The notes beneath the pieces were generated by a model. It saw only the letters and a list, made by a program, of their open reading frames with translations, made no database searches and was not told the DNA's origin. From assembly GCF_001677475.2 (NCBI RefSeq), contig NZ_CP015229.1: a stretch of 64,000 nucleotides of DNA. One strand, given 5' to 3'. Positions 1 to 47,874 of the stretch are shown in pieces (the stretch's first letter is position 1; each line of letters begins with the position of its first letter). The position numbers were made by a program, and so were the translations under genes. This stretch comes from Escherichia coli. GTDB lineage: Bacteria; Pseudomonadota; Gammaproteobacteria; Enterobacterales; Enterobacteriaceae.

Positions 1-152
1 ATATACGGGTCTAATACATTGAAGTTGAAGTTGTACATGGTGCGGTTGAACCCTTCTAACGGGTCAGAACGCCCTTGCTGATCTGTACCGGAACTCGCAC
101 ACCCCACCAGAAGCGTAGTTCCCAGAGCAAGCGCCGACAGGCGAAGCTTCAT
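1..152 (-). CDS. mlaA: MlaA (VacJ) outer-membrane lipoprotein, N-terminal part only (gene continues beyond window start)
   Basis: Reverse-strand translation from ATG at 152 gives MKLRLSALALGTTLLVGCASSGTDQQ..., a lipoprotein signal with lipobox LVGC matching MlaA/VacJ; runs off the window edge. Confidence 0.8.
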   Translation of the reverse strand, partial: MKLRLSALALGTTLLVGCASSGTDQQGRSDPLEGFNRTMYNFNFNVLDPY

Positions 153-445
153 AAATGTCTCCCTGTTTTTTTATGGCTTATGCAGTTTGCCATCCATGAC
201 GGAACGATACCGTATCCGCCTGTTTAGGTGTGGGCGATTGTAACAGCACGTCAACTGATGTCCAGACGCCCTGATTTGCTGATTTGATCATAGCCTGGTA
301 ATCGCCGCCCTGTAGGCTACTTGATTCTATAGAAACAGAAAAAGGCAAACGCGGCCTTTTCTACATTTTCAGAGTAACTCCCGCCAGTTGCGAGCAAAAA
401 AGCCGCTACGCTTTAGCTATACGTGCTAATTCAAGAGAAGAGACC

Positions 446-1378
446 ATGGACAACGACAAAATTGATCAACACAGCGACGAAATTGAAGTTGAGAGCGAAG
501 AAAAAGAGCGTGGCAAAAAAATAGAAATAGATGAAGATCGACTCCCCTCCCGGGCGATGGCAATTCATGAGCATATCCGCCAGGATGGTGAAAAAGAGCT
601 GGAACGCGACGCAATGGCACTACTGTGGTCAGCCATTGCGGCGGGTCTGTCGATGGGCGCTTCGTTACTGGCAAAAGGGATATTTCATGTCGAACTGAAA
701 GGTGTGCCGGGTAGCTTCTTGCTGGAGAATCTCGGTTATACCTTTGGTTTTATTATCGTCATTATGGCCCGCCAGCAATTATTTACCGAAAACACCGTGA
801 CAGCGGTACTACCCGTCATGCAAAAACCGACAATGAGCAACGTTGGCTTACTTATGCGGTTATGGGGCGTCGTGCTGCTGGGTAATATTCTCGGGACAGG
901 TATTGCGGCGTGGGCATTTGAATATATGCCTATCTTCAATGAAGAAACTCGCGATGCATTTGTCAAAATCGGTATGGATGTGATGAAGAACACCCCCAAC
1001 GAGATGTTTGCCAACGCGATCATTTCCGGCTGGCTGATCGCCACTATGGTATGGATGTTTCCTGCAGCGGGTGCGGCAAAGATTGTGGTGATTATATTGA
1101 TGACCTGGCTTATTGCCCTGGGTGACACCACTCACATCGTTGTCGGTTCTGTTGAAATACTCTATCTGGTGTTTAACGGTACGCTGCACTGGAGCGATTT
1201 CATCTGGCCCTTCGCACTACCTACTTTAGCGGGGAACATCTGCGGCGGCACCTTTATCTTCGCGTTAATGAGTCATGCACAGATCCGTAACGACATGAGC
1301 AACAAGCGCAAAGCAGAAGCACGCCAAAAAGCAGAACGTGCGGAAAACATTAAGAAAAATGATAAAAACCCAGCATAA
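446..1378 (+). CDS. yfdC: Formate/nitrite transporter (FNT) family inner-membrane protein
   Basis: 310-aa ORF with multi-pass hydrophobic core; length and position immediately upstream of argW match YfdC. Confidence 0.85.
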   Translation: MDNDKIDQHSDEIEVESEEKERGKKIEIDEDRLPSRAMAIHEHIRQDGEKELERDAMALLWSAIAAGLSMGASLLAKGIFHVELKGVPGSFLLENLGYTFGFIIVIMARQQLFTENTVTAVLPVMQKPTMSNVGLLMRLWGVVLLGNILGTGIAAWAFEYMPIFNEETRDAFVKIGMDVMKNTPNEMFANAIISGWLIATMVWMFPAAGAAKIVVIILMTWLIALGDTTHIVVGSVEILYLVFNGTLHWSDFIWPFALPTLAGNICGGTFIFALMSHAQIRNDMSNKRKAEARQKAERAENIKKNDKNPA

Positions 1379-1453
1379 ATGGCGAGGGTTTAAGCAATCG
1401 AGCGGCAGCGTACTTACCCCGCAGTCCATTAGCGGGTATACTCATGCCGCATT

Positions 1454-1528
1454 GTCCTCTTAGTTAAATGGATATAACGAGCCCCTCCTAAGGGCTAATT
1501 GCAGGTTCGATTCCTGCAGGGGACACCA
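1454..1528 (+). tRNA. argW: tRNA-Arg (anticodon CCU)
   Basis: 75-nt sequence GTCCTCTTAGTTAAATGGATATAACGAGCCCCTCCTAAGGGCTAATTGCAGGTTCGATTCCTGCAGGGGACACCA with cloverleaf potential, CCT in anticodon loop and encoded CCA end. Confidence 0.9.
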
Positions 1529-1653
1529 GATACCCTTCTAACGATATCTACCTTCACCCCGTAAAAGATGGGTTTGGCAGCACACTTACCCTATATCTAC
1601 TCATTTTTACTGCAACAGGTTGAAATCTTAGCACTGTCAGAAAGCGCTGATGA

Positions 1654-1890
1654 CTAAACAACCCTGGGCCGGGCGATGTAACCATCACACAGAATCCTGA
1701 TAGCGAAATATGGCGTGACTCGATACTTCACTCCGCAATGTATTCCTTGATGAATTCGCAGGCCCGTGATACACGGGACAGGTCGCTGAATGACGACAAT
1801 GTCCTGGAAATCAGCGAACCGCGTATCCGAAGTACATTTGAGCGACTGTACCAGAACATGAATGAGGCGTTTGGATTAGGTGATTATTAG
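1654..1890 (+). other. Unassigned open frame (stop-to-stop about 78 codons, internal Met at 1738) in the segment between argW and cscB; possible gene remnant
   Basis: Frame open from TGA at 1651-1653 to TAG at 1888-1890; translation ...MYSLMNSQARDTRDRSLNDDNVLEISEPRIRSTFERLYQNMNEAFGLGDY; no family recognised. Confidence 0.2.
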
Positions 1891-1969
1891 CAGGGCTAAG
1901 CATTTTAGTATTATTATTTTCCGGTTGAGGGATATGGAGATATCGACAACAACCGGAAAAAGTTTACGT

Positions 1970-3217
1970 CTATATTGCTGAAGGAACAGGCGTTTCCATA
2001 ACTATTTGCTCGCGTTTTTTACTCAGGAAGAAAATGCCAAATAGCAACATCAGGCAGACAATACCCGAAATTGCGAAGAAAACTGTCTGGTAGCCTGCGT
2101 GGTCAAAGAGTATCCCAGTCGGCGTTGAAAGCAGCACAATCCCAAGCGAACTGGCAATTTGAAAACCAATCAGAAAGATCGTCGACGACAGGCGCCTATC
2201 AAAGTTTGCCACGCTGTATTTGAAGACGGATATGACACAAAGTGGAACCTCAATGGCATGTAACAGCTTCACTAATGAAATAATCCAGGGGTTAACGAAC
2301 AGCGCGCAGGAAAGGATACGCAACGCCATAATCACAACACCGATAAGTAATGCATTTTTTGGCCCTACCCGATTCACAAAGAAAGGAATAATCGCCATGC
2401 ACAGCGCTTCGAGTACCACCTGGAATGAGTTGAGATAACCATACAGGCGCGTTCCTACATCGTGTGATTCGAATAAACCTGCATAAAAGACAGGAAAAAG
2501 TTGTTGATCAAAAATGTTATAGAAAGACCACGTCCCCACAATAAATATGACGAAAACCCAGAAGTTTCGATCCTTGAAAACTGCGATAAAATCCTCTTTT
2601 TTTACCCCTCCCGCATCCGCCGCTACGCACTGGTGATCCTTATCTTTAAAACACATGTTGATCATCATAAATACAGCGCCAAATAGCGAGACCAACCAGA
2701 AGTTGATATGGGGACTGATACTAAAAAATATGCCGGCAAAGAACGCGCCAATAGCATAGCCAAAAGATCCCCAGGCGCGCGCTGTTCCATATTCGAAATG
2801 AAAATTTCGCGCCATTTTTTCGGTGAAGCTGTCAAGCAAACCGCATCCCGCCAGATACCCCAGGCCAAAAAAGAGCGCCCCCAGAATTAGACCTACAGAA
2901 AAATTGCTTTGCAGTAACGGTTCATAAACGTAAATCATAAACGGTCCGGTCAAGACCAGGATGAAACTCATACACCAGATGAGCGGTTTCTTCAGACCGA
3001 GTTTATCCTGAACGATGCCGTAGAACATCATAAATAGAATGCTGGTAAACTGGTTGACCGAATAAAGTGTACCTAATTCCGTCCCTGTCAACCCTAGATG
3101 TCCTTTCAGCCAAATAGCGTATAACGACCACCACAGCGACCAGGAAATAAAAAAGAGAAATGAGTAACTGGATGCAAAACGATAGTACGCATTTCTGAAT
3201 GGAATATTCAGTGCCAT
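1970..3217 (-). CDS. cscB: Sucrose:H+ symporter (MFS, LacY-like oligosaccharide:H+ symporter family)
   Basis: 415-aa 12-TM-type ORF recognised as CscB; adjacent to cscK/cscA/cscR. Confidence 0.9.
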   Translation of the reverse strand: MALNIPFRNAYYRFASSYSFLFFISWSLWWSLYAIWLKGHLGLTGTELGTLYSVNQFTSILFMMFYGIVQDKLGLKKPLIWCMSFILVLTGPFMIYVYEPLLQSNFSVGLILGALFFGLGYLAGCGLLDSFTEKMARNFHFEYGTARAWGSFGYAIGAFFAGIFFSISPHINFWLVSLFGAVFMMINMCFKDKDHQCVAADAGGVKKEDFIAVFKDRNFWVFVIFIVGTWSFYNIFDQQLFPVFYAGLFESHDVGTRLYGYLNSFQVVLEALCMAIIPFFVNRVGPKNALLIGVVIMALRILSCALFVNPWIISLVKLLHAIEVPLCVISVFKYSVANFDRRLSSTIFLIGFQIASSLGIVLLSTPTGILFDHAGYQTVFFAISGIVCLMLLFGIFFLSKKREQIVMETPVPSAI

Positions 3218-3288
3218 AATTACCTGCCTGTCGTTAAAAAATTCACGTCCTATTTAGAGATAAGAGCGACTTCGCTGTTTACTTCTCA

Positions 3289-4203
3289 CTATTCCAGTTC
3301 TTGTCGACATGGCAGCGCTGTCATTGCCCCTTTCGCCGTTACTGCAAGCGCTCCGCAACGTTGAGCGAGATCGATAATTCGTCGCATTTCTCTCTCATCT
3401 GTAGATAATCCCGTAGAGGACAGACCTGTGAGTAACCCGGCAACGAACGCATCTCCCGCCCCCGTGCTATCGACACAATTCACAGACATTCCAGCAAAAT
3501 GGTGAACTTGTCCTCGATAACAGACCACCACCCCTTCTGCACCTTTAGTCACCAACAGCATGGCGATCTCATACTCTTTTGCCAGGGCGCATATATCCCG
3601 ATCGTTCTGTGTTTTTCCACTGATAAGTCGCCATTCTTCTTCCGAGAGCTTGACGACATCCGCCAGTTGCAGCGCCTGCCGCAAACACAAGCGGAGCAAA
3701 TGCTCGTCTTGCCATAGATCTTCACGAATATTGGGATCGAAGCTGACAAAACCTCCGGCATGCCGGATCGCCGTCATCGCTGTAAATGCGCTGGTACGCG
3801 AAGGCTCAGCAGACAACGCAATTGAACAGAGATGTAACCATTCGCCATGTCGCCAGCAGGGCAAGTCTGTCGTCTCTAAAAAAAGATCGGCACTGGGGCG
3901 GACCATAAACGTAAATGAACGTTCCCCTTGATCGTTCAGATCGACAAGCACCGTGGATGTCCGGTGCCATTCATCTTGCTTCAGATACGTGATATCGACT
4001 CCCTCAGTTAGCAGCGTTCTTTGCATTAACGCACCAAAAGGATCATCCCCCACCCGACCTATAAACCCACTTATTCCGCCTAATCTGGCGATTCCCACCG
4101 CAACGTTAGCTGGCGCACCGCCAGGACAAGGCAGTAGCCGCCCGTCTGATTCTGGCAAGAGATCTACGACCGCGTCCCCTAAAACCCACACTTTGGCTGA
4201 CAT
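3289..4203 (-). CDS. cscK: Fructokinase (PfkB/ribokinase family)
   Basis: 304-aa ORF with PfkB-type N-terminal GDAVVD and C-terminal GAGDAF motifs; in csc cluster. Confidence 0.85.
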   Translation of the reverse strand: MSAKVWVLGDAVVDLLPESDGRLLPCPGGAPANVAVGIARLGGISGFIGRVGDDPFGALMQRTLLTEGVDITYLKQDEWHRTSTVLVDLNDQGERSFTFMVRPSADLFLETTDLPCWRHGEWLHLCSIALSAEPSRTSAFTAMTAIRHAGGFVSFDPNIREDLWQDEHLLRLCLRQALQLADVVKLSEEEWRLISGKTQNDRDICALAKEYEIAMLLVTKGAEGVVVCYRGQVHHFAGMSVNCVDSTGAGDAFVAGLLTGLSSTGLSTDEREMRRIIDLAQRCGALAVTAKGAMTALPCRQELE

Positions 4204-4308
4204 TTTTTTCCCTTAGATTCATCTGACTTACGCATAGTGATAAACCTCTTTTTCGCAAAATCGTCATGGATTTACTAAAACATGCATATTCGATCACAAA
4301 ACATCATA

Positions 4309-4320
4309 GTTAACGTTAAC
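4309..4320. promoter_or_regulatory. Perfect 12-bp palindrome GTTAACGTTAAC in cscK-cscA divergent promoter region; candidate CscR operator (copy 1)
   Basis: Read directly in sequence; self-complementary; second identical copy 64 bp downstream. Confidence 0.5.
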
Positions 4321-4372
4321 ATTTGTGATATTCATCGCATTTATGAAAGTAAGGGACTTTATTTTTATAAAA

Positions 4373-4384
4373 GTTAACGTTAAC
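4373..4384. promoter_or_regulatory. Perfect 12-bp palindrome GTTAACGTTAAC; candidate CscR operator (copy 2)
   Basis: Identical to 4309-4320; lies about 25 bp upstream of cscA start codon. Confidence 0.5.
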
Positions 4385-4409
4385 AATTCACCAAATTTGC
4401 TTAACCAGG

Positions 4410-5852
4410 ATGATAAAAATGACGCAATCTCGATTACATGCGGCGCAAAACGCACTAGCAAAACTTCACGAGCGCCGAGGTAACACTTTCTATCCCCATT
4501 TTCACCTCGCGCCTCCTGCCGGGTGGATGAACGATCCAAACGGCCTGATCTGGTTTAACGATCGTTATCACGCGTTTTATCAACATCACCCGATGAGCGA
4601 ACACTGGGGGCCAATGCACTGGGGACATGCCACCAGCGACGATATGATCCACTGGCAGCATGAGCCTATTGCGCTAGCGCCAGGAGACGAGAATGACAAA
4701 GACGGGTGTTTTTCAGGTAGTGCTGTCGATGACAATGGTGTCCTCTCACTTATCTACACCGGACACGTCTGGCTCGATGGTGCAGGTAATGACGATGCAA
4801 TTCGCGAAGTACAATGTCTGGCTACCAGTCGGGATGGTATTCATTTCGAGAAACAGGGTGTGATCCTCACTCCACCAGAAGGAATCATGCACTTCCGCGA
4901 TCCTAAAGTGTGGCGTGAAGCCGACACATGGTGGATGGTAGTCGGGGCGAAAGACCCAGGCAACACGGGGCAGATCCTCCTTTATCGCGGCAGTTCATTA
5001 CGTGAATGGACTTTCGATCGCGTACTGGCCCACGCTGATGCGGGTGAAAGCTATATGTGGGAATGTCCGGACTTTTTCAGCCTTGGCGATCAGCATTATC
5101 TGATGTTTTCCCCGCAGGGAATGAATGCCGAGGGATACAGTTATCGAAATCGCTTTCAAAGTGGCGTAATACCCGGAATCTGGTCGCCAGGACGACTTTT
5201 TGCACAATCCGGGCATTTTACTGAACTTGATAACGGGCATGACTTTTATGCACCACAAAGCTTTTTAGCGAAGGATGGTCGGCGTATTGTTATCGGCTGG
5301 ATGGATATGTGGGAATCGCCAATGCCCTCAAAACGTGAAGGCTGGGCAGGCTGCATGACGCTGGCGCGCGAGCTATCAGAGAGCAATGGCAAACTCCTAC
5401 AACGCCCGGTACACGAAGCTGAGTCGTTACGCCAGCAGCATCAATCTATCTCTCCCCGCACAATCAGCAATAAATATGTTTTGCAGGAAAACGCGCAAGC
5501 AGTTGAGATTCAGTTGCAGTGGGCGCTGAAGAACAGTGATGCCGAACATTACGGCTTACAGCTCGGTACTGGAATGCGGCTGTATATTGATAACCAATCT
5601 GAGCGACTTGTTTTGTGGCGGTATTACCCACACGAGAATTTAGACGGCTACCGTAGTATTCCCCTCCCGCAGCGTGACACACTCGCCCTAAGGATATTTA
5701 TCGATACATCATCCGTGGAAGTATTTATTAACGACGGGGAAGCGGTGATGAGTAGTCGAATCTATCCGCAGCCAGAAGAACGGGAACTGTCGCTTTATGC
5801 CTCCCACGGAGTGGCTGTGGTGCAACATGGAGCACTCTGGCTACTGGGTTAA
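4410..5852 (+). CDS. cscA: Sucrose-6-phosphate hydrolase / invertase (glycoside hydrolase family 32)
   Basis: 480-aa ORF with GH32 N-terminal WMNDPNG catalytic motif and RDP motif (FRDPKV). Confidence 0.9.
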   Translation: MIKMTQSRLHAAQNALAKLHERRGNTFYPHFHLAPPAGWMNDPNGLIWFNDRYHAFYQHHPMSEHWGPMHWGHATSDDMIHWQHEPIALAPGDENDKDGCFSGSAVDDNGVLSLIYTGHVWLDGAGNDDAIREVQCLATSRDGIHFEKQGVILTPPEGIMHFRDPKVWREADTWWMVVGAKDPGNTGQILLYRGSSLREWTFDRVLAHADAGESYMWECPDFFSLGDQHYLMFSPQGMNAEGYSYRNRFQSGVIPGIWSPGRLFAQSGHFTELDNGHDFYAPQSFLAKDGRRIVIGWMDMWESPMPSKREGWAGCMTLARELSESNGKLLQRPVHEAESLRQQHQSISPRTISNKYVLQENAQAVEIQLQWALKNSDAEHYGLQLGTGMRLYIDNQSERLVLWRYYPHENLDGYRSIPLPQRDTLALRIFIDTSSVEVFINDGEAVMSSRIYPQPEERELSLYASHGVAVVQHGALWLLG

Positions 5853-5859
5853 CATAATA

Positions 5860-6861
5860 TCAGGTGGAACAACGGATCAACAGCGGGCAAGGGATCCGCG
5901 TCACTCTTCCCCCTTCACGACCTTCAATAATATGCAATGCAGCTTCCCGCCCGATAATGTCATGTGGAAGCTGAATTGTGGTCAGCGGCGGTAAAAACAG
6001 ATGCCCGACGCCAACCAGATTATCAAAGCCCATTACGGCGACATCCTGCGGGATACGTACCCCCTTCGCCAGGAGAACCTGATAAGCGACAAAGGCTGCG
6101 CGATCGTTACCACATATCAGAACATCAAAATCTGGTTTGCCAGATTGGAAGTGGGCATTGAGTAAACTTGCGAGATCGGTGTAGTGATCATCACCTGTTG
6201 CCATGTGAAATTGTTTCACCTCAGCCAGATCTCGTCCAGCATCACGCCAGGCCTGCTCAAATCCCTGCCGACGATACCCTGTTGCCAACGCACTTTCCGG
6301 TAGCCAGAAGCATAACGGTTGACGATAGCCCGCCGCGAGCAAATGCTGTGTTGATTCATATTGTGCAGTGTAATCATCAGGGATATAACTGGGTAACACT
6401 GGGTCATCCGCCACACAGTTCGCCAATACAATATTTTCACCATACAGAGACTCAGGCAGCGTGATATGTCGCAGCCCCATTGTAGTATAGATAATGCCAT
6501 CCGGACGGTGGGCAAGCAGCTGACGTGCCGCGCGGGCAGCGTCATCTTCAGAAAAAATATTGATTAAAAAACTATTCCAGCCGAACTCGCTGGCGGTTTG
6601 CTCAATGGCAAGCAGAATATCAACAGAGAAAGGAGTGGTAGCAGTGTCCTGCGCCAGCACGGCGAGAGTCGACGGCTTACGTCCTTGAGCGCGCATCTTA
6701 CGGGCGGAAAGATCAGGAACATAATTCAGGGTCTGGATTGCCTGCAATACGCGGTCACGCGTTGCAGGACGCACAGATTCTGCATTATGCATCACCCGGG
6801 AGACTGTCATCATCGACACTCCCGCCAGGCGTGCGACATCCTTTAATGAAGCCATACCCAT
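5860..6861 (-). CDS. cscR: LacI-family transcriptional repressor of csc genes
   Basis: HTH (MASLKDVARLAGVSMMTVSRVMHN) then periplasmic-binding-protein-like sugar domain; 397-aa ORF in track is probably 5'-extended, start placed at internal Met (6861 or 6855). Confidence 0.85.
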   Translation of the reverse strand: MGMASLKDVARLAGVSMMTVSRVMHNAESVRPATRDRVLQAIQTLNYVPDLSARKMRAQGRKPSTLAVLAQDTATTPFSVDILLAIEQTASEFGWNSFLINIFSEDDAARAARQLLAHRPDGIIYTTMGLRHITLPESLYGENIVLANCVADDPVLPSYIPDDYTAQYESTQHLLAAGYRQPLCFWLPESALATGYRRQGFEQAWRDAGRDLAEVKQFHMATGDDHYTDLASLLNAHFQSGKPDFDVLICGNDRAAFVAYQVLLAKGVRIPQDVAVMGFDNLVGVGHLFLPPLTTIQLPHDIIGREAALHIIEGREGGRVTRIPCPLLIRCST

Positions 6862-7097
6862 GCCGTTTGCCGTAAAACGGGCACTGTAGCAGAAACAGAC
6901 GTCACTGGCGAGATCCAACGATATTCTTAACGCCCTATCACCCGACACGGCAATACAATAAAAAATAACAATAATTGCCGGATAATTGTACCCAATTCCG
7001 CCCCTGTTCTCGCCAACGAGTAACCATATAGGCAAGTAAGTAAAACATGCCAACTGACATCGCCAACCTGGATAAGAAAATATAAATATGGATCATT

Positions 7098-7316
7098 GTG
7101 CTGCCGCTGTATCCCGACATCAGCCCGGAAATTATTGCGATTGCTATCGGTTCAGGTGCGATTGGCTGCACGATCGTTACGGACTCGCTTTTCTGGCTGG
7201 TGAAGCAATATTGCGGCGCTACGCTTAATGAAACATTTAAACACTATACGACAGCGACATTTATCGCTTCAGTCGTCGCTCTGGCGGGCACATTCCTGCT
7301 GTCATTTATCATCTAA
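7098..7316 (+). pseudogene. dsdX: 3' remnant of D-serine permease gene dsdX (GntP family); 5' portion and dsdC absent
   Basis: 72-aa ORF ...[42 protein letters not shown] resembles a GntP-family C-terminus; sits directly upstream of dsdA where dsdX is expected. Confidence 0.65.
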
Positions 7317-7333
7317 GCGCAAAGAGACGTACT

Positions 7334-8662
7334 ATGGAAAACGCTAAAATGAACTCGCTCATCGCCCAGTATCCGTTGGTAAAGGATCTGGTTGCTCTTA
7401 AAGAAACCACCTGGTTTAATCCTGGCACGACCTCATTGGCTGAAGGTTTACCTTATGTTGGCCTGACCGAACAGGATGTTCAGGACGCCCATGCGCGCTT
7501 ATCCCGTTTTGCACCCTATCTGGCAAAAGCATTTCCTGAAACTGCTGCTACTGGGGGGATTATTGAATCAGAACTGGTTGCCATTCCGGCTATGCAAAAA
7601 CGGCTGGAAAAGGAATATCAACAACCGATCAGCGGGCAACTGTTACTGAAAAAAGATAGCCATTTGCCCATTTCCGGCTCCATAAAAGCACGCGGCGGGA
7701 TTTATGAAGTCCTGGCACACGCAGAAAAACTGGCTCTGGAAGCGGGGTTGCTGACGCTTGAAGATGACTACAGCAAACTGCTTTCTCCGGAGTTTAAACA
7801 GTTCTTTAGCCAATACAGCATTGCTGTGGGCTCAACCGGAAATCTGGGATTGTCAATCGGCATAATGAGCGCCCGCATTGGCTTTAAGGTGACAGTGCAT
7901 ATGTCTGCTGATGCCCGGGCATGGAAAAAAGCGAAACTGCGCAGCCATGGCGTTATGGTCGTGGAATATGAGCAAGATTATGGTGTTGCCGTCGAGGAAG
8001 GACGTAAAGCAGCGCAGTCTGACCCGAACTGTTTCTTTATTGATGACGAGAATTCCCGCAGGTTGTTCCTTGGGTATTCCGTCGCAGGCCAGCGTCTTAA
8101 AGCGCAATTTGCCGAGCAAGGTCGTATTGTCGATGCTGATAACCCTCTGTTTGTCTATCTGCCGTGTGGTGTAGGCGGTGGTCCTGGTGGTGTCGCATTC
8201 GGGCTTAAACTGGCGTTTGGCGATCATGTTCACTGCTTTTTTGCCGAACCAACGCACTCCCCTTGTATGCTGTTAGGCGTCCATACAGGATTACACGATC
8301 AGATTAATGTTCAGGATATTGGTATCGACAACCTTACCGCAGCGGATGGCCTTGCAGTTGGTCGCGCATCAGGCTTTGTCGGGCGGGCAATGGAGCGTCT
8401 GCTGGATGGCTTCTATACCCTTAGCGATCAAACCATGTATGACATGCTTGGCTGGCTGACGCAGGAAGAAGGTATTCGTCTTGAACCTTCGGCACTGGCG
8501 GGTATGGCCGGGCCTCAGCGCGTGTGCGCATCAGTAAGTTACCAACAGATGCACGGTTTCAGCGCAGAACAACTGCGTAATGCCACTCATCTGGTGTGGG
8601 CGACGGGAGGTGGAATGGTGCCGGAAGAAGAGATGGAGCAATATCTGGCAAAAGGCCGCTAA
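7334..8662 (+). CDS. dsdA: D-serine ammonia-lyase (D-serine dehydratase), PLP-dependent
   Basis: 442-aa ORF; PLP-lysine region SGSIKARGG; recognised as DsdA. Confidence 0.9.
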
Positions 8663-8770
8663 TTAATTTTCAATGCAGCATCGCCATCCTTTCCCTAGGT
8701 GAGCGATGCTGCCGATGGCGCAGGCTTAAGATTCTACCGTCTTACCTGCTATAGCTCTCTCTTTTTACCA

Positions 8771-10309
8771 TCACCCAACACCTTTCGCTGTAAACGGCGG
8801 TTTCGCAAACCAAACCAATACCGTAAGTAAGATAAAAGCAATAGCCGCCATACGGAAAATCTCATTTGCAGAAATTGAAAGTGACTGCTGAGTTATTTCA
8901 TTATTAATTTCATTAAGAACCCCTGAAAGCGAACCATAGTATTTATCCATAATTTGTGACGATGAATTAAACACGGGGTTAAATTGATCGATTGTTGCTG
9001 TCAACTGACTATGGTGTAATGATTCTCGGCGTCCCCACAGCGTCATTGTCAACGACGTACCAACGGATCCTGACAAGGTACGAAAAAAATTACTCATACT
9101 CGAGGCATTGGCAAATTTATTATCTGGCAAACCTGAAAACGAAATCGTTGTTAAGGGTAAAAAGAAACAGGCGACGGCGAATCCCTGAAAAAACTGTGGC
9201 AAAATGATGCCTGTAAAATCAATCGTTGGCATAAATGTCACAGAACGCCAGTAATAGCAAACCGCATACATTAAAAAACTAAATGTCACCAACAACCGCA
9301 TATCAATTTTGTTGCCATAACGTCCTATCAAAGGTGATATTAATAGCGGCATGATGCCGATGGGCGCATAGGCAAGTCCGGCCCATATCGCATTATACCC
9401 CATCGTTTCCTGGAGTAACTGCGGCATAAGGACTATCGCCCCAGAGTAAAATAAATACGCGCATGTGATACTCACAATACCAATGGTGAAATTACGGGAC
9501 TTAAACAAACTGAGATCAAGAATCGGATTCTCTGAGGTCGACTCCCAAATGACTAAAGAAATCAGAGAAATAACTGACACTACTGTTAGTATTATTATTG
9601 TACTCGAGTTGAACCAATCCAGATCGCGCCCTTTATCAAGCATTATCTGCAAGCCACCAACACCGAGCACTAACAGGGTCAGTCCTGGTAGATTCATTTT
9701 GACCGGTGAAGTCTCAGTTTCTCTTCCTTTAAGTAAGGTTAAGCATAATGTCAGAACGATAATCCCCATAGGGACATTGATTAAAAATATCCAACCCCAG
9801 CTAAAGTTGTCACAAATATAGCCGCCCAATATCGGCCCACATATCGGAGCGATAATTACGGTCATTGACCATAATGCCAAAGCAAATGTTCTTTTTTCTG
9901 GCGGATAATTCCTTAATAATAAACTCTGTGACAGTGGAATTAACGGCCCCGCCATTAACCCCTGAACGACTCTAAAAAATATCAACACATCAAGATTGGT
10001 CGATAGGCTACACATTAATGAAGACAGCGAAAAAAAGGTTACTGAAAGTAAAAATAATCTTAATTCGCCTATTCTTTGTGCCAGCCTGCCGGTAACAGGG
10101 ATCGCAATGGCATTTGCTACGCCAAACGAGGTGATAACCCAGGTGCCTTCGTCTGTTGATGCTCCCAGAAAGCCAGATATTGTCGGTATTGCGACGTTAG
10201 AAATAGTGGAATCCAACATTTGCATAAACGTCGCTAATGACAATGCAATAGTGACGCACCATAACGTCCCACCGGTTAATGGTGCCGGAGTTGATTTAGT
10301 GATTGCCAT
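8771..10309 (-). CDS. emrY: MFS multidrug efflux pump (EmrB paralog)
   Basis: 512-aa 14-TM-type MFS ORF; 1-bp overlap with upstream emrK suggests translational coupling. Confidence 0.9.
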   Translation of the reverse strand: MAITKSTPAPLTGGTLWCVTIALSLATFMQMLDSTISNVAIPTISGFLGASTDEGTWVITSFGVANAIAIPVTGRLAQRIGELRLFLLSVTFFSLSSLMCSLSTNLDVLIFFRVVQGLMAGPLIPLSQSLLLRNYPPEKRTFALALWSMTVIIAPICGPILGGYICDNFSWGWIFLINVPMGIIVLTLCLTLLKGRETETSPVKMNLPGLTLLVLGVGGLQIMLDKGRDLDWFNSSTIIILTVVSVISLISLVIWESTSENPILDLSLFKSRNFTIGIVSITCAYLFYSGAIVLMPQLLQETMGYNAIWAGLAYAPIGIMPLLISPLIGRYGNKIDMRLLVTFSFLMYAVCYYWRSVTFMPTIDFTGIILPQFFQGFAVACFFLPLTTISFSGLPDNKFANASSMSNFFRTLSGSVGTSLTMTLWGRRESLHHSQLTATIDQFNPVFNSSSQIMDKYYGSLSGVLNEINNEITQQSLSISANEIFRMAAIAFILLTVLVWFAKPPFTAKGVG

Positions 10310-44824: not shown

Positions 44825-44900
<76 letters not shown>

Positions 44901-47598: not shown

Positions 47599-47674
47599 GG
47601 GTGATTAGCTCAGCTGGGAGAGCACCTCCCTTACAAGGAGGGGGTCGGCGGTTCGATCCCGTCATCACCCACCA
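47599..47674 (+). tRNA. valU: tRNA-Val (anticodon UAC), copy 1
   Basis: 76-nt GGGTGATTAGCTCAGCTGGGAGAGCACCTCCCTTACAAGGAGGGGGTCGGCGGTTCGATCCCGTCATCACCCACCA. Confidence 0.9.
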
Positions 47675-47718
47675 ACTACTTTATGTAGTCTCCGCCGTGT
47701 AGCAAGAAATTGAGAAGT

Positions 47719-47794
47719 GGGTGATTAGCTCAGCTGGGAGAGCACCTCCCTTACAAGGAGGGGGTCGGCGGTTCGATCCCGTCATCACCCACCA
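47719..47794 (+). tRNA. valX: tRNA-Val (anticodon UAC), copy 2
   Basis: Identical 76-nt sequence to copy 1, separated by a 44-bp spacer. Confidence 0.9.
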
Positions 47795-47798
47795 CTTC

Positions 47799-47874
47799 GG
47801 GTCGTTAGCTCAGTTGGTAGAGCAGTTGACTTTTAATCAATTGGTCGCAGGTTCGAATCCTGCACGACCCACCA
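47799..47874 (+). tRNA. lysV: tRNA-Lys (anticodon UUU)
   Basis: GGGTCGTTAGCTCAGTTGGTAGAGCAGTTGACTTTTAATCAATTGGTCGCAGGTTCGAATCCTGCACGACCCACCA. Confidence 0.9.

Follow-up and report, generated by a model that had tools for sequence, protein, structure and literature searches.

Between the tRNA gene argW and the D-serine ammonia-lyase gene dsdA, the Escherichia coli DNA analysed here (a chromosomal stretch of 64,000 nucleotides, called the window below) carries four genes of sucrose catabolism, cscB, cscK, cscA and cscR. This order had been proposed in a preliminary description of the sequence and is borne out by the open reading frames and by NCBIfam profiles. On the left, argW (1454-1528, plus strand) was recognised by ARAGORN as a tRNA-Arg(CCU) with the anticodon CCT; on the right, the csc genes are followed by a truncated dsdX and then by dsdA.

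All four csc genes are full length. cscB (1970-3217, minus strand) encodes a sucrose:H+ symporter of the LacY family with 415 residues, which scores 592.9 bits against TIGR00882 (cut-off 220), differs from other E. coli alleles at one to three amino acids and has Q at residue 353. Located 71 bp upstream on the same strand, cscK (3289-4203, minus strand) encodes a complete PfkB-family fructokinase of 304 residues (505.7 bits against the equivalog NF006957, cut-off 450), and the two genes would form one transcript. The third gene, cscA (4419-5852, plus strand), encodes a cytoplasmic GH32 invertase of 477 residues (TIGR01322, scrB_fam, 479.7 bits), with the motifs WMNDPNG at residue 36, RDP at residue 160 and EC at residue 215; its open reading frame begins at 4410 (480 residues), and the start at 4419 is the one that PGAP uses in other genomes. 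Convergent with cscA, its stop codon 7 bp from that of the invertase gene, cscR (5860-6855, minus strand) encodes a repressor of 331 residues that matches the LacI family and has the N-terminal helix-turn-helix MASLKDVARLAGVSMMTVSRV. Here too the start is the ATG used by PGAP elsewhere (comparison loci L001 and L012), the mechanical reading frame continuing to 7053; the gene is 99.6% identical in nucleotides to the corresponding position of L001. Three substitutions, CscB K341R, CscA M254I and CscR A153V, are specific to this lineage.

The divergent cscKB and cscA genes share a control region of 215 bp (4204-4418), delimited from the sequence. A repeat search and a regular expression located in it two identical 12-bp palindromes, GTTAACGTTAAC, at 4309-4320 and 4373-4384, both intact, which are the predicted CscR operators; between them, at 4324-4339, lies a CRP-like site, TGTGATATTCATCGCA, found with the pattern TGTGA-N6-TCNCA. 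This agrees with the layout given in Stephens 2024 (PMC11251922), which cites Jahreis 2002: a 12-bp inverted repeat in two copies between cscA and cscK, and a CRP site that adjoins the -35 element of cscA. No sequence at odds with a csc regulon was seen.

Some automatic names would point to a different biochemistry. PGAP calls cscA a sucrose-6-phosphate hydrolase and cscK an aminoimidazole riboside kinase, and TIGR01322 is itself named as a sucrose-6-phosphate hydrolase family, as though the pathway were of the PTS type. However, the block has neither a PTS EII gene nor a porin, its transporter is a LacY-type MFS symporter, the kinase scores above the fructokinase equivalog cut-off, and csc is treated as a permease-mediated, non-PTS route both in PMC3938415 and in PMC11251922. 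A PTS-type pathway is, in our view, scarcely tenable. Our results indicate instead that the block is the chromosomal csc regulon for non-PTS sucrose catabolism at its usual E. coli site next to argW, to which we assign a probability of roughly 0.93. From what is known of these protein families and from the literature, CscB would import sucrose together with a proton, CscA, acting in the cytoplasm, would split it into glucose and fructose, CscK would phosphorylate the fructose and the host glucokinase the glucose. CscR, encoded separately from the divergent cscKB and cscA units, would repress both promoters until sucrose is plentiful, and expression would need cAMP-CRP.

Junctions of the insert and the replaced segment

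When the window was compared by blastn with K-12 MG1655 and with another dsdCXA-type genome, matches covered 1-1528 and resumed at 7099, with nothing between. The csc insert is thus 1529-7098, a segment of 5570 bp that is absent from K-12 and from other dsdCXA-type genomes, as the preliminary description had expected of an alignment with K-12. That description had drawn the block as 1529-7316; the left edge stands, and the right edge has to be moved inwards, given that the stretch up to 7316 takes in the dsdX remnant. Since homology ends at 1528 and restarts at 7099, which is nucleotide 1121 of dsdX, dsdC and 1120 bp of dsdX have been replaced. The replaced segment amounts to 2372 bp and comprises dsdC, the spacers that separate it from argW and from dsdX, and the first 1120 nucleotides of dsdX. 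Against a csc-positive E. coli, positions 3-9000 align at 98.8% identity without an insertion or deletion and with the same PGAP gene set. The most diverged stretch of the insert is its right-hand end, the 243 bp upstream of cscR (6856-7098; 96.3% identity to L001). The remainder of the window is collinear core chromosome, in agreement with the first view of csc as its one clearly accessory block.

What is left of the D-serine permease gene (7099-7316, plus strand) corresponds to DsdX residues 374-445 and is read in a 72-codon frame opened by a GTG at 7098 that the junction itself created. The ORF at 7098-7316 matches profile positions 374-445 of 445 in the DsdX equivalog NF007395 (E = 7e-42) and by tblastn is 95.8% identical to these DsdX residues, which upholds the homology on which the original interpretation had been made to depend; in csc-positive genomes PGAP labels the fragment a pseudogene without N-terminus. 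Beyond the remnant, tblastn found no dsdX sequence in the 64 kb, and for dsdC it found there only paralogous LysR genes of 28-43% identity. The adjoining dsdA (7334-8662, plus strand) is intact, with 442 residues, the whole of TIGR02035 covered (positions 1-431 of 431, 807 bits), an alignment over residues 1-442 with the solved E. coli DsdA (PDB 3SS7) and the PLP-lysine motif SGSIKARGG kept; it carries four lineage-specific substitutions. Among the components of a functional dsdCXA system, therefore, dsdC and a full-length dsdX of 445 residues are missing from the window and an intact dsdA is present. The claim that dsdA has been left without its activator and its dedicated permease holds for the window, and the dsdX promoter is missing as well.

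Several features of the left edge point to a mobile element. The 3' end of argW is an integration site: where a prophage or an island occupies argW, a copy of the final 15-20 bases of the gene (about 1509/1514-1528) is found again as attR. In the three loci aligned (L003, L007 and L008) homology begins at 1506-1514, and in three different elements integrated at argW the attR directly adjoins position 1529, the first base of the island. The left junction falls exactly at the last base of argW and of the att core, and csc has been placed at the argW hotspot by Stephens 2024 (PMC11251922). Just inside lies an internal fragment of a DUF4942 gene (1654-1890, plus strand, with an ATG-started ORF at 1738-1890), recognised by BLASTP, PGAP and Pfam PF13708. 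It is 53% identical to residues 76-151 of a DUF4942 protein of 281 residues (E = 8e-22) that ends a CbtA-DUF5983-DUF957-DUF4942 island module, and by this resemblance appears to be the relic of a mobile island. No integrase ORF was found in 1529-7098, and a search of the window with a 25-mer of the argW 3' end, at up to three mismatches, returned argW itself only. The block is thus not bounded by repeats today, and the case for a mobile-element origin is built from relics.

Other signs of foreign origin and other vehicles were considered and set aside. Base composition gave no signal, the G+C content of the island (48.1%) equalling that of the window (48.6%) and being lower only in cscB (44.0%) and at the two ends (43.6-44.9%). 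Four full-length matches in records classed as plasmids come from records of 0.37-4.9 Mb, three of which (1.4-4.9 Mb) are presumably chromosomal DNA under a plasmid label. Genuine plasmids had nothing closer than distant genes of the GH32 or scr type, 66-72% identical, and a plasmid-borne csc was rejected as the vehicle. Four coliphage records bear csc at the end of the record. One stops exactly at the cscA stop codon and another spans an excisionase and the att site and runs into csc; we read them as prophages whose boundaries were drawn too wide, not as phages with csc as cargo.

Prevalence, diversity and history of the locus

Of 5426 complete E. coli genomes, 2645 contain the csc block at 80% or more of its length and 2698 contain the replaced dsdC-dsdX segment. 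Together these make 5343 of the 5426, which fits a largely either/or locus. Given that about half of complete genomes carry the csc arrangement, it is ordinary as well as well known and already published. The arrangement and its effects were reportedly described by Jahreis in 2002 and by Moritz and Welch in 2006. An exact match to the 23 bp of the csc/dsdX' junction was not found among GTDB species-representative genomes, a result that covers that exact 23-mer only. Identity of the island does not exceed 98.9% in any complete E. coli genome. Against each complete RefSeq genome of E. coli, the host lineage shows a divergence of about 2%; two assemblies, GCA_016118665.1 and GCA_018682815.1, are nearly the same in sequence (99.995% identity).

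Synonymous diversity is 0.020-0.049 in the csc genes, against 0.072-0.078 in the flanking yfdC and 0.09-0.12 in dsdA, that is, two- to four-fold below the flanking genes, in a comparison of nine csc-positive and five to seven dsdCX-positive genomes whose pairs are not independent. dN/dS is 0.05-0.22 for the csc genes and about 0.08 for dsdA in csc-positive genomes. The low dN/dS and the lower synonymous diversity suggest that the csc genes are functional and have a younger common ancestor.

It could be argued that the csc form is ancestral and that dsdC-dsdX was inserted later in K-12-like strains. Nothing specific favours this order of events, the two forms being about equally frequent, and it appears close to negligible: the dsdX 3' remnant, promoterless and in register with the full gene, marks a deletion, the csc genes have the lower synonymous diversity given above, and the mobile-element relic sits inside the csc side. 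The left edge, flush with the tRNA and its att core and closely followed by the DUF4942 relic, suggests that the csc block arrived in a single event, carried by an element that integrated at argW. The right edge would be an illegitimate deletion ending inside dsdX, by which dsdC and dsdX codons 1-373 were removed, and the csc and dsdCX forms may since have been swapped among lineages by homologous recombination through their shared flanks.

Sucrose and D-serine phenotypes

The genes agree with the non-PTS route in the preliminary description, no PTS EII gene being present; its statement that the strain should grow on sucrose was too strong. Among the 29 isolates with csc and without scr examined by Stephens 2024 (PMC11251922), none grew fast on sucrose, 23 grew slowly or very slowly, and five did not grow, four of these without a visible csc lesion. 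A csc regulon that is cryptic in this strain, with intact genes and no useful growth on sucrose, is accordingly conceivable, if unlikely. Besides those isolates, this would be consistent with the wild-type repression elements of the window (both operators, an intact cscR and Q353 in CscB) and with the three lineage-specific csc substitutions. On the other hand, four full-length genes under purifying selection, and the slow growth of the 23 isolates (PMC11251922), argue for a working pathway. Judged from the gene content, the strain would show slow, sucrose-inducible growth, together with sensitivity to D-serine or an inability to use it.

With respect to D-serine, in EDL933 dsdC was lost and dsdX truncated by cscBKAR, and the dsd system is then non-functional (Connolly 2015, PMC4366372; O'Boyle 2020, PMC7486766). 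The EHEC literature, which concerns the same junctions, suggests that dsdA is essentially silent for want of its activator DsdC and of the dsdX promoter; by analogy, strains of the csc type would be unable to use D-serine and would be inhibited by it. If the genome had another complete dsdCXA locus at a different place, the strain would remain D-serine-positive and the loss at argW would be without a phenotype. Two copies are common in K1 strains, according to the title of Moritz and Welch 2006 as given in PMC4366372, a dsdC-dsdX probe matched up to two places per genome, and rare strains with both the csc and the dsdCX loci have been reported (PMC11251922). We nevertheless consider a second copy very improbable here: there is no other dsdC or dsdX sequence within the 64 kb, the csc and dsdCX counts together stay below the 5426 genomes, and in the closest complete genome a 9-kb query including dsdA matches at one place.

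Why dsdA is kept intact behind a replaced activator may have a regulatory answer. The gap of 7 bp between cscA and cscR, the absence of terminator-like plus-strand sites from a simple scan and a full-length dsdA at a dN/dS of about 0.08 would allow read-through from the cscA promoter, once derepressed by sucrose, antisense through cscR and into dsdX'-dsdA. A simple consensus scan found no terminator-like site on the plus strand from the end of cscA (5852) to 7282, and promoter-like sites were fewer than expected by chance (two, against 10.2 in shuffled sequences), so that the scan carries no information on the promoters of cscR or dsdA. O'Boyle 2020 (PMC7486766) showed that, once parts of the cscR region are deleted, dsdA can be driven from the cscA promoter. 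If dsdA had been rewired in this manner in csc-positive lineages, a proposal that we regard as speculative and rather improbable, D-serine deaminase would be sucrose-inducible and the retention of dsdA would be explained. Alternatively, dsdA may be maintained by recombination with dsdCXA strains, as suggested by DsdA alleles common to csc and dsdCX genomes (the protein WP_000426427.1 is identical in one genome of each form), or by basal expression from an internal dsdA promoter.

Comparison with known systems

The argW-integrated elements known from other strains (CPS-53/KpLE1 of K-12, the P22-like prophages of O157 and Kapi1) share the att core at the argW 3' end, and in csc-positive genomes base 1529 of the csc block follows directly on their attR. 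Unlike these prophages and islands, the locus of the window has no integrase, flanking repeats or phage genes, and the DUF4942 fragment is all that it retains.

The scr regulon (scrK, scrY, scrA, scrB and scrR; pUR400, Klebsiella and E. coli B2) also serves sucrose catabolism with a hydrolase of family GH32, a fructokinase and a repressor of the LacI family, and some GH32 genes on plasmids are about 72% identical to part of cscA. However, in scr sucrose is taken up through a PTS EII (ScrA) and a porin (ScrY), and the substrate of the hydrolase is sucrose-6-phosphate, whereas csc relies on an MFS symporter and cleaves sucrose in its free form; scr is associated with fast and csc with slow growth (PMC11251922). 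The csc locus of Citrobacter freundii encodes homologous proteins, and its operator and CRP elements are conserved, with cscA and cscR each inverted and the DNA too diverged for blastn (PMC11251922).

The closest counterparts are the csc loci of E. coli EC3132, W and O157:H7 EDL933, which have the same four genes in the same order and orientations, the same two operators and CRP-like site, the same junctions, the DUF4942 relic and the dsdX' pseudogene. Over the full island, O157:H7 genomes are 98.8% identical to the window, with only allelic differences; O157 has a prophage at argW and the window has none there. For the window this makes a confident annotation, and the biology itself is not new. 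The distance of the lineage, the low diversity of csc and the purifying selection on an orphan dsdA are small additions for the population genetics of E. coli.

The dsdCXA locus of K-12 and UPEC occupies the same position before emrY and shares with the window an orthologous dsdA and the 72 final dsdX codons; the window differs from it by the loss of dsdC and of dsdX codons 1-373, so that it has no activator, permease or main promoter. Taken together, the two forms are a textbook either/or metabolic polymorphism of E. coli, in which the use of sucrose is gained and tolerance of D-serine is lost, and which has been linked to niche restriction, with EHEC of the gut and other LEE-positive strains on one side and urinary UPEC on the other.

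The csc block in place of dsdC and most of dsdX

The preliminary description placed a set of sucrose genes between argW and dsdA, and both the NCBIfam matches and the ORF coordinates bear this out. Downstream of yfdC (446-1378), the first gene of the window, and of argW, a tRNA-Arg(CCU) gene (1454-1528), there are six ORFs whose profile matches leave no doubt on their identities. The minus strand carries cscB (1970-3217), encoding a LacY-type oligosaccharide MFS transporter of 415 aa (TIGR00882, 592.9 bits), cscK (3289-4203), encoding a fructokinase of 304 aa (equivalog NF006957, 505.7 bits against a cut-off of 450), and cscR (5860-6855), assigned by NCBIfam to the LacI-family regulators and displaying the usual helix-turn-helix in its N-terminal sequence. 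On the plus strand, cscA (4419-5852) encodes a GH32 hydrolase (TIGR01322, 479.7 bits) in which the motifs WMNDPNG, RDP and EC are all found. In several annotated genomes (L001, L003 and L012-L017), PGAP calls the product of cscK 'aminoimidazole riboside kinase' and that of cscA 'sucrose-6-phosphate hydrolase'. These product names are misleading, because the kinase scores above the cut-off of the NCBIfam equivalog for fructokinase and the pathway does not involve a PTS.

The 72-codon ORF that follows (7098-7316, plus strand) matches only positions 374-445 of the 445 of the DsdX equivalog profile (E = 7e-42). A tblastn search of all 64 kb with DsdX found this remnant (7098-7313, 95.8% identity) and no other match, so that it had been correctly read as the C-terminal fragment of the D-serine permease. 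The same search with DsdC yielded only two paralogous LysR genes (28-43% identity); dsdC is therefore absent from the window, as had been proposed. The claim that dsdA (7334-8662) is intact also holds: the D-serine ammonia-lyase of 442 aa covers the full TIGR02035 profile (807 bits) and aligns over its whole length with the E. coli enzyme of known structure (PDB 3SS7), with the PLP-lysine motif kept.

Alignment by blastn to K-12 MG1655 and to a second dsdCXA-type genome gave homology over 1-1528 and then from 7099 onward, with nothing between, and K-12 has dsdC and most of dsdX where the window has the insert. In K-12 the second homology block begins at dsdX nucleotide 1121. The insert thus corresponds to 1529-7098 (5570 bp). 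In the dsdCXA form its place is taken by 2372 bp, which comprise the spacer between argW and dsdC, dsdC itself, the spacer between dsdC and dsdX, and dsdX nucleotides 1-1120. The junction itself creates the GTG that opens the dsdX remnant ORF. Elsewhere the window is collinear core chromosome, extending from emrYK and evgAS, by way of glk, gltX, ligA and ptsHI-crr, to yfeS, which supports the view that csc is its only accessory block. A second dsdCXA locus could still be present elsewhere in the genome; strains carrying both csc and dsdCXA exist and are rare (PMC11251922).

Boundaries of the block at argW

The left edge retains traces of a mobile element. The sequence encoded by 1654-1887 matches part of a DUF4942 protein of 281 aa (residues 76-151, 53% identity, E = 8e-22), a label that PGAP and Pfam also give in other genomes. 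In E. coli B this protein is the last gene of a CbtA-DUF5983-DUF957-DUF4942 island module. The stretch 1654-1890, between argW and cscB, is therefore the relic of a mobile island. In three loci with a prophage or island at argW (L003, of O157 type, and L007 and L008, of the window's own lineage), attR duplicates 15-20 bp of the argW 3' end, and the sequence after it is exactly that starting at window position 1529; the left edge of csc therefore falls on the boundary of the att core. On the right, the block ends inside a gene, without a repeat. The window contains a single copy of the argW 3' 25-mer, and no integrase was found at the csc block. Junctions are identical in all csc-positive genomes examined. 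We infer that the block was acquired once, on an element integrating at argW, and that this was followed by decay of the element and a deletion into dsdX.

In some genomes of the window's lineage argW is occupied by a lambdoid prophage (L007, 1-4200), in others by an island with the gene for a type ISP restriction-modification enzyme of 1630 aa (L008, 1-3861); in both, the csc block is unchanged 3' of attR. Four coliphage records that were submitted as complete genomes (including ON470594.1 and ON470608.1) have csc genes at one end. The end of one coincides exactly with the cscA stop codon, and another spans the excisionase gene, the att site and the csc genes up to cscR and the island end. 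Rather than csc being phage cargo, the boundaries of these argW prophages have probably been drawn too wide.

Distribution and proposed spread of the csc form

Of 5426 complete E. coli genomes, 2645 have the csc island and 2698 the replaced dsdC-dsdX segment, each over at least 80% of its length. The sum of these separate counts (5343) is what a largely either/or locus would give. A csc-positive E. coli genome (L001) aligned to window positions 3-9000 without any indel at 98.8% identity, and its PGAP gene list is the same, dsdX pseudogene included. Among the 5426 complete RefSeq genomes, the best identity was 98.9% for the island, 98.0% for 9001-34000 and 97.8% for 34001-59000, so that the island is nearer to other E. 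coli than the core flank is. In core regions the host lineage is about 2% or more diverged from each of these genomes. Over 18.7 kb the window is 99.995% identical to two draft assemblies (GCA_016118665.1 and GCA_018682815.1), and substitutions are mostly synonymous; this is therefore natural sequence from a lineage missing from the complete-genome set. The exact 23-mer of the csc/dsdX junction was not found in GTDB species representatives.

Region 34001-59000 matched as a single place, at 80% or more, in only 84 genomes. It has one tRNA-Ala(GGC), two tRNA-Val(UAC) and then one tRNA-Lys(UUU) gene (44825-44900 and 47599-47874), where K-12 has two Ala and three Val genes. The low count may reflect the effect of repeated tRNA genes on the joining of pieces, rather than real accessory content.

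Nei-Gojobori comparisons of nine csc-positive and five to seven dsdCX-positive genomes, a small sample with non-independent pairs that is indicative only, gave mean synonymous divergences of 0.028 for cscB, 0.033 for cscK, 0.049 for cscA and 0.020 for cscR, two- to four-fold below those of the flanking yfdC (0.072-0.078) and dsdA (0.09-0.12). The common ancestor of the csc block would therefore be younger than that of its flanks, and this suggests a younger block spread by homologous recombination; dN/dS of the csc genes was 0.05-0.22. Moreover, an identical DsdA (WP_000426427.1) in csc-positive isolate 2-101 (L013, 7335-8663) and dsdCX-positive BH212 (L021, 236-1564) points to recent recombinational exchange between the two forms.

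Sucrose, D-serine and the published csc regulon

From gene family and literature, CscB would take up sucrose together with a proton and CscA would split it in the cytoplasm, the fructose being phosphorylated by CscK and the glucose by host glucokinase. CscR would repress both promoters through two operators, and expression would need cAMP-CRP. Growth of this strain on sucrose is not assured. The wild-type repression apparatus is present, and CscB residue 353 is Q, reportedly the residue altered in the faster-transport mutant of Jahreis 2002. Isolate 2-101 has an internal stop in cscB (L013, 1971-3218), and dsdA is frameshifted in an O145 strain whose dsdC and dsdX are retained (L020, 2678-4005); both locus forms show decay. 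Among 29 csc+ scr- isolates, none grew fast on sucrose, 23 grew slowly or very slowly and five did not grow, four of these five with no visible lesion in csc (Stephens 2024, PMC11251922).

EDL933 shares this arrangement, and there the missing dsdC and truncated dsdX leave the D-serine system without function and D-serine toxic to the cell; dsdA is silent yet functional, and can be switched on again when deletions around cscR bring it under the control of the cscA promoter or of another promoter upstream (O'Boyle et al. 2020, PMC7486766). Even in the wild-type arrangement, transcription from the cscA promoter could conceivably read through toward dsdA, since the stop codons of the convergent cscA and cscR are 7 bp apart and a simple scan found no terminator-like site on the plus strand from the end of cscA to 7282. 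By the same Nei-Gojobori comparison, dsdA dN/dS was 0.078 in csc-positive against 0.029 in dsdCX-positive genomes, values indicating that constraint under the csc form is still strong and perhaps somewhat relaxed. Four DsdA substitutions (T208M, T243R, S325N and A376T) occur in this lineage only, in none of 13 other alleles, against zero to two lineage-specific substitutions in each neighbouring gene; constraint on dsdA may be mildly relaxed.

Our results confirm the observation and support its interpretation, with caveats on sucrose growth and a possible second dsdCXA locus. The cscK-cscA spacer (215 bp) contains the 12-bp palindrome GTTAACGTTAAC in two identical copies (4309-4320 and 4373-4384), with a CRP-like site, TGTGATATTCATCGCA, between them (4324-4339). 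It differs from the closest complete genome at three positions (4216, 4251 and 4303), none in the palindromes or the CRP-like site. This is the layout of the published csc regulon as set out by Stephens et al. 2024, citing Jahreis 2002, where the cscA promoter lies between two 12-bp inverted repeats and has a CRP site beside its -35 (PMC11251922). The resemblance to the described csc arrangement at argW-dsdA is likewise upheld, the same substitution being reported by O'Boyle et al. 2020 (PMC7486766) and, at the argW hotspot and linked to niche, by Connolly et al. 2015 (PMC4366372). The locus is the already known csc/dsdCX polymorphism at argW.
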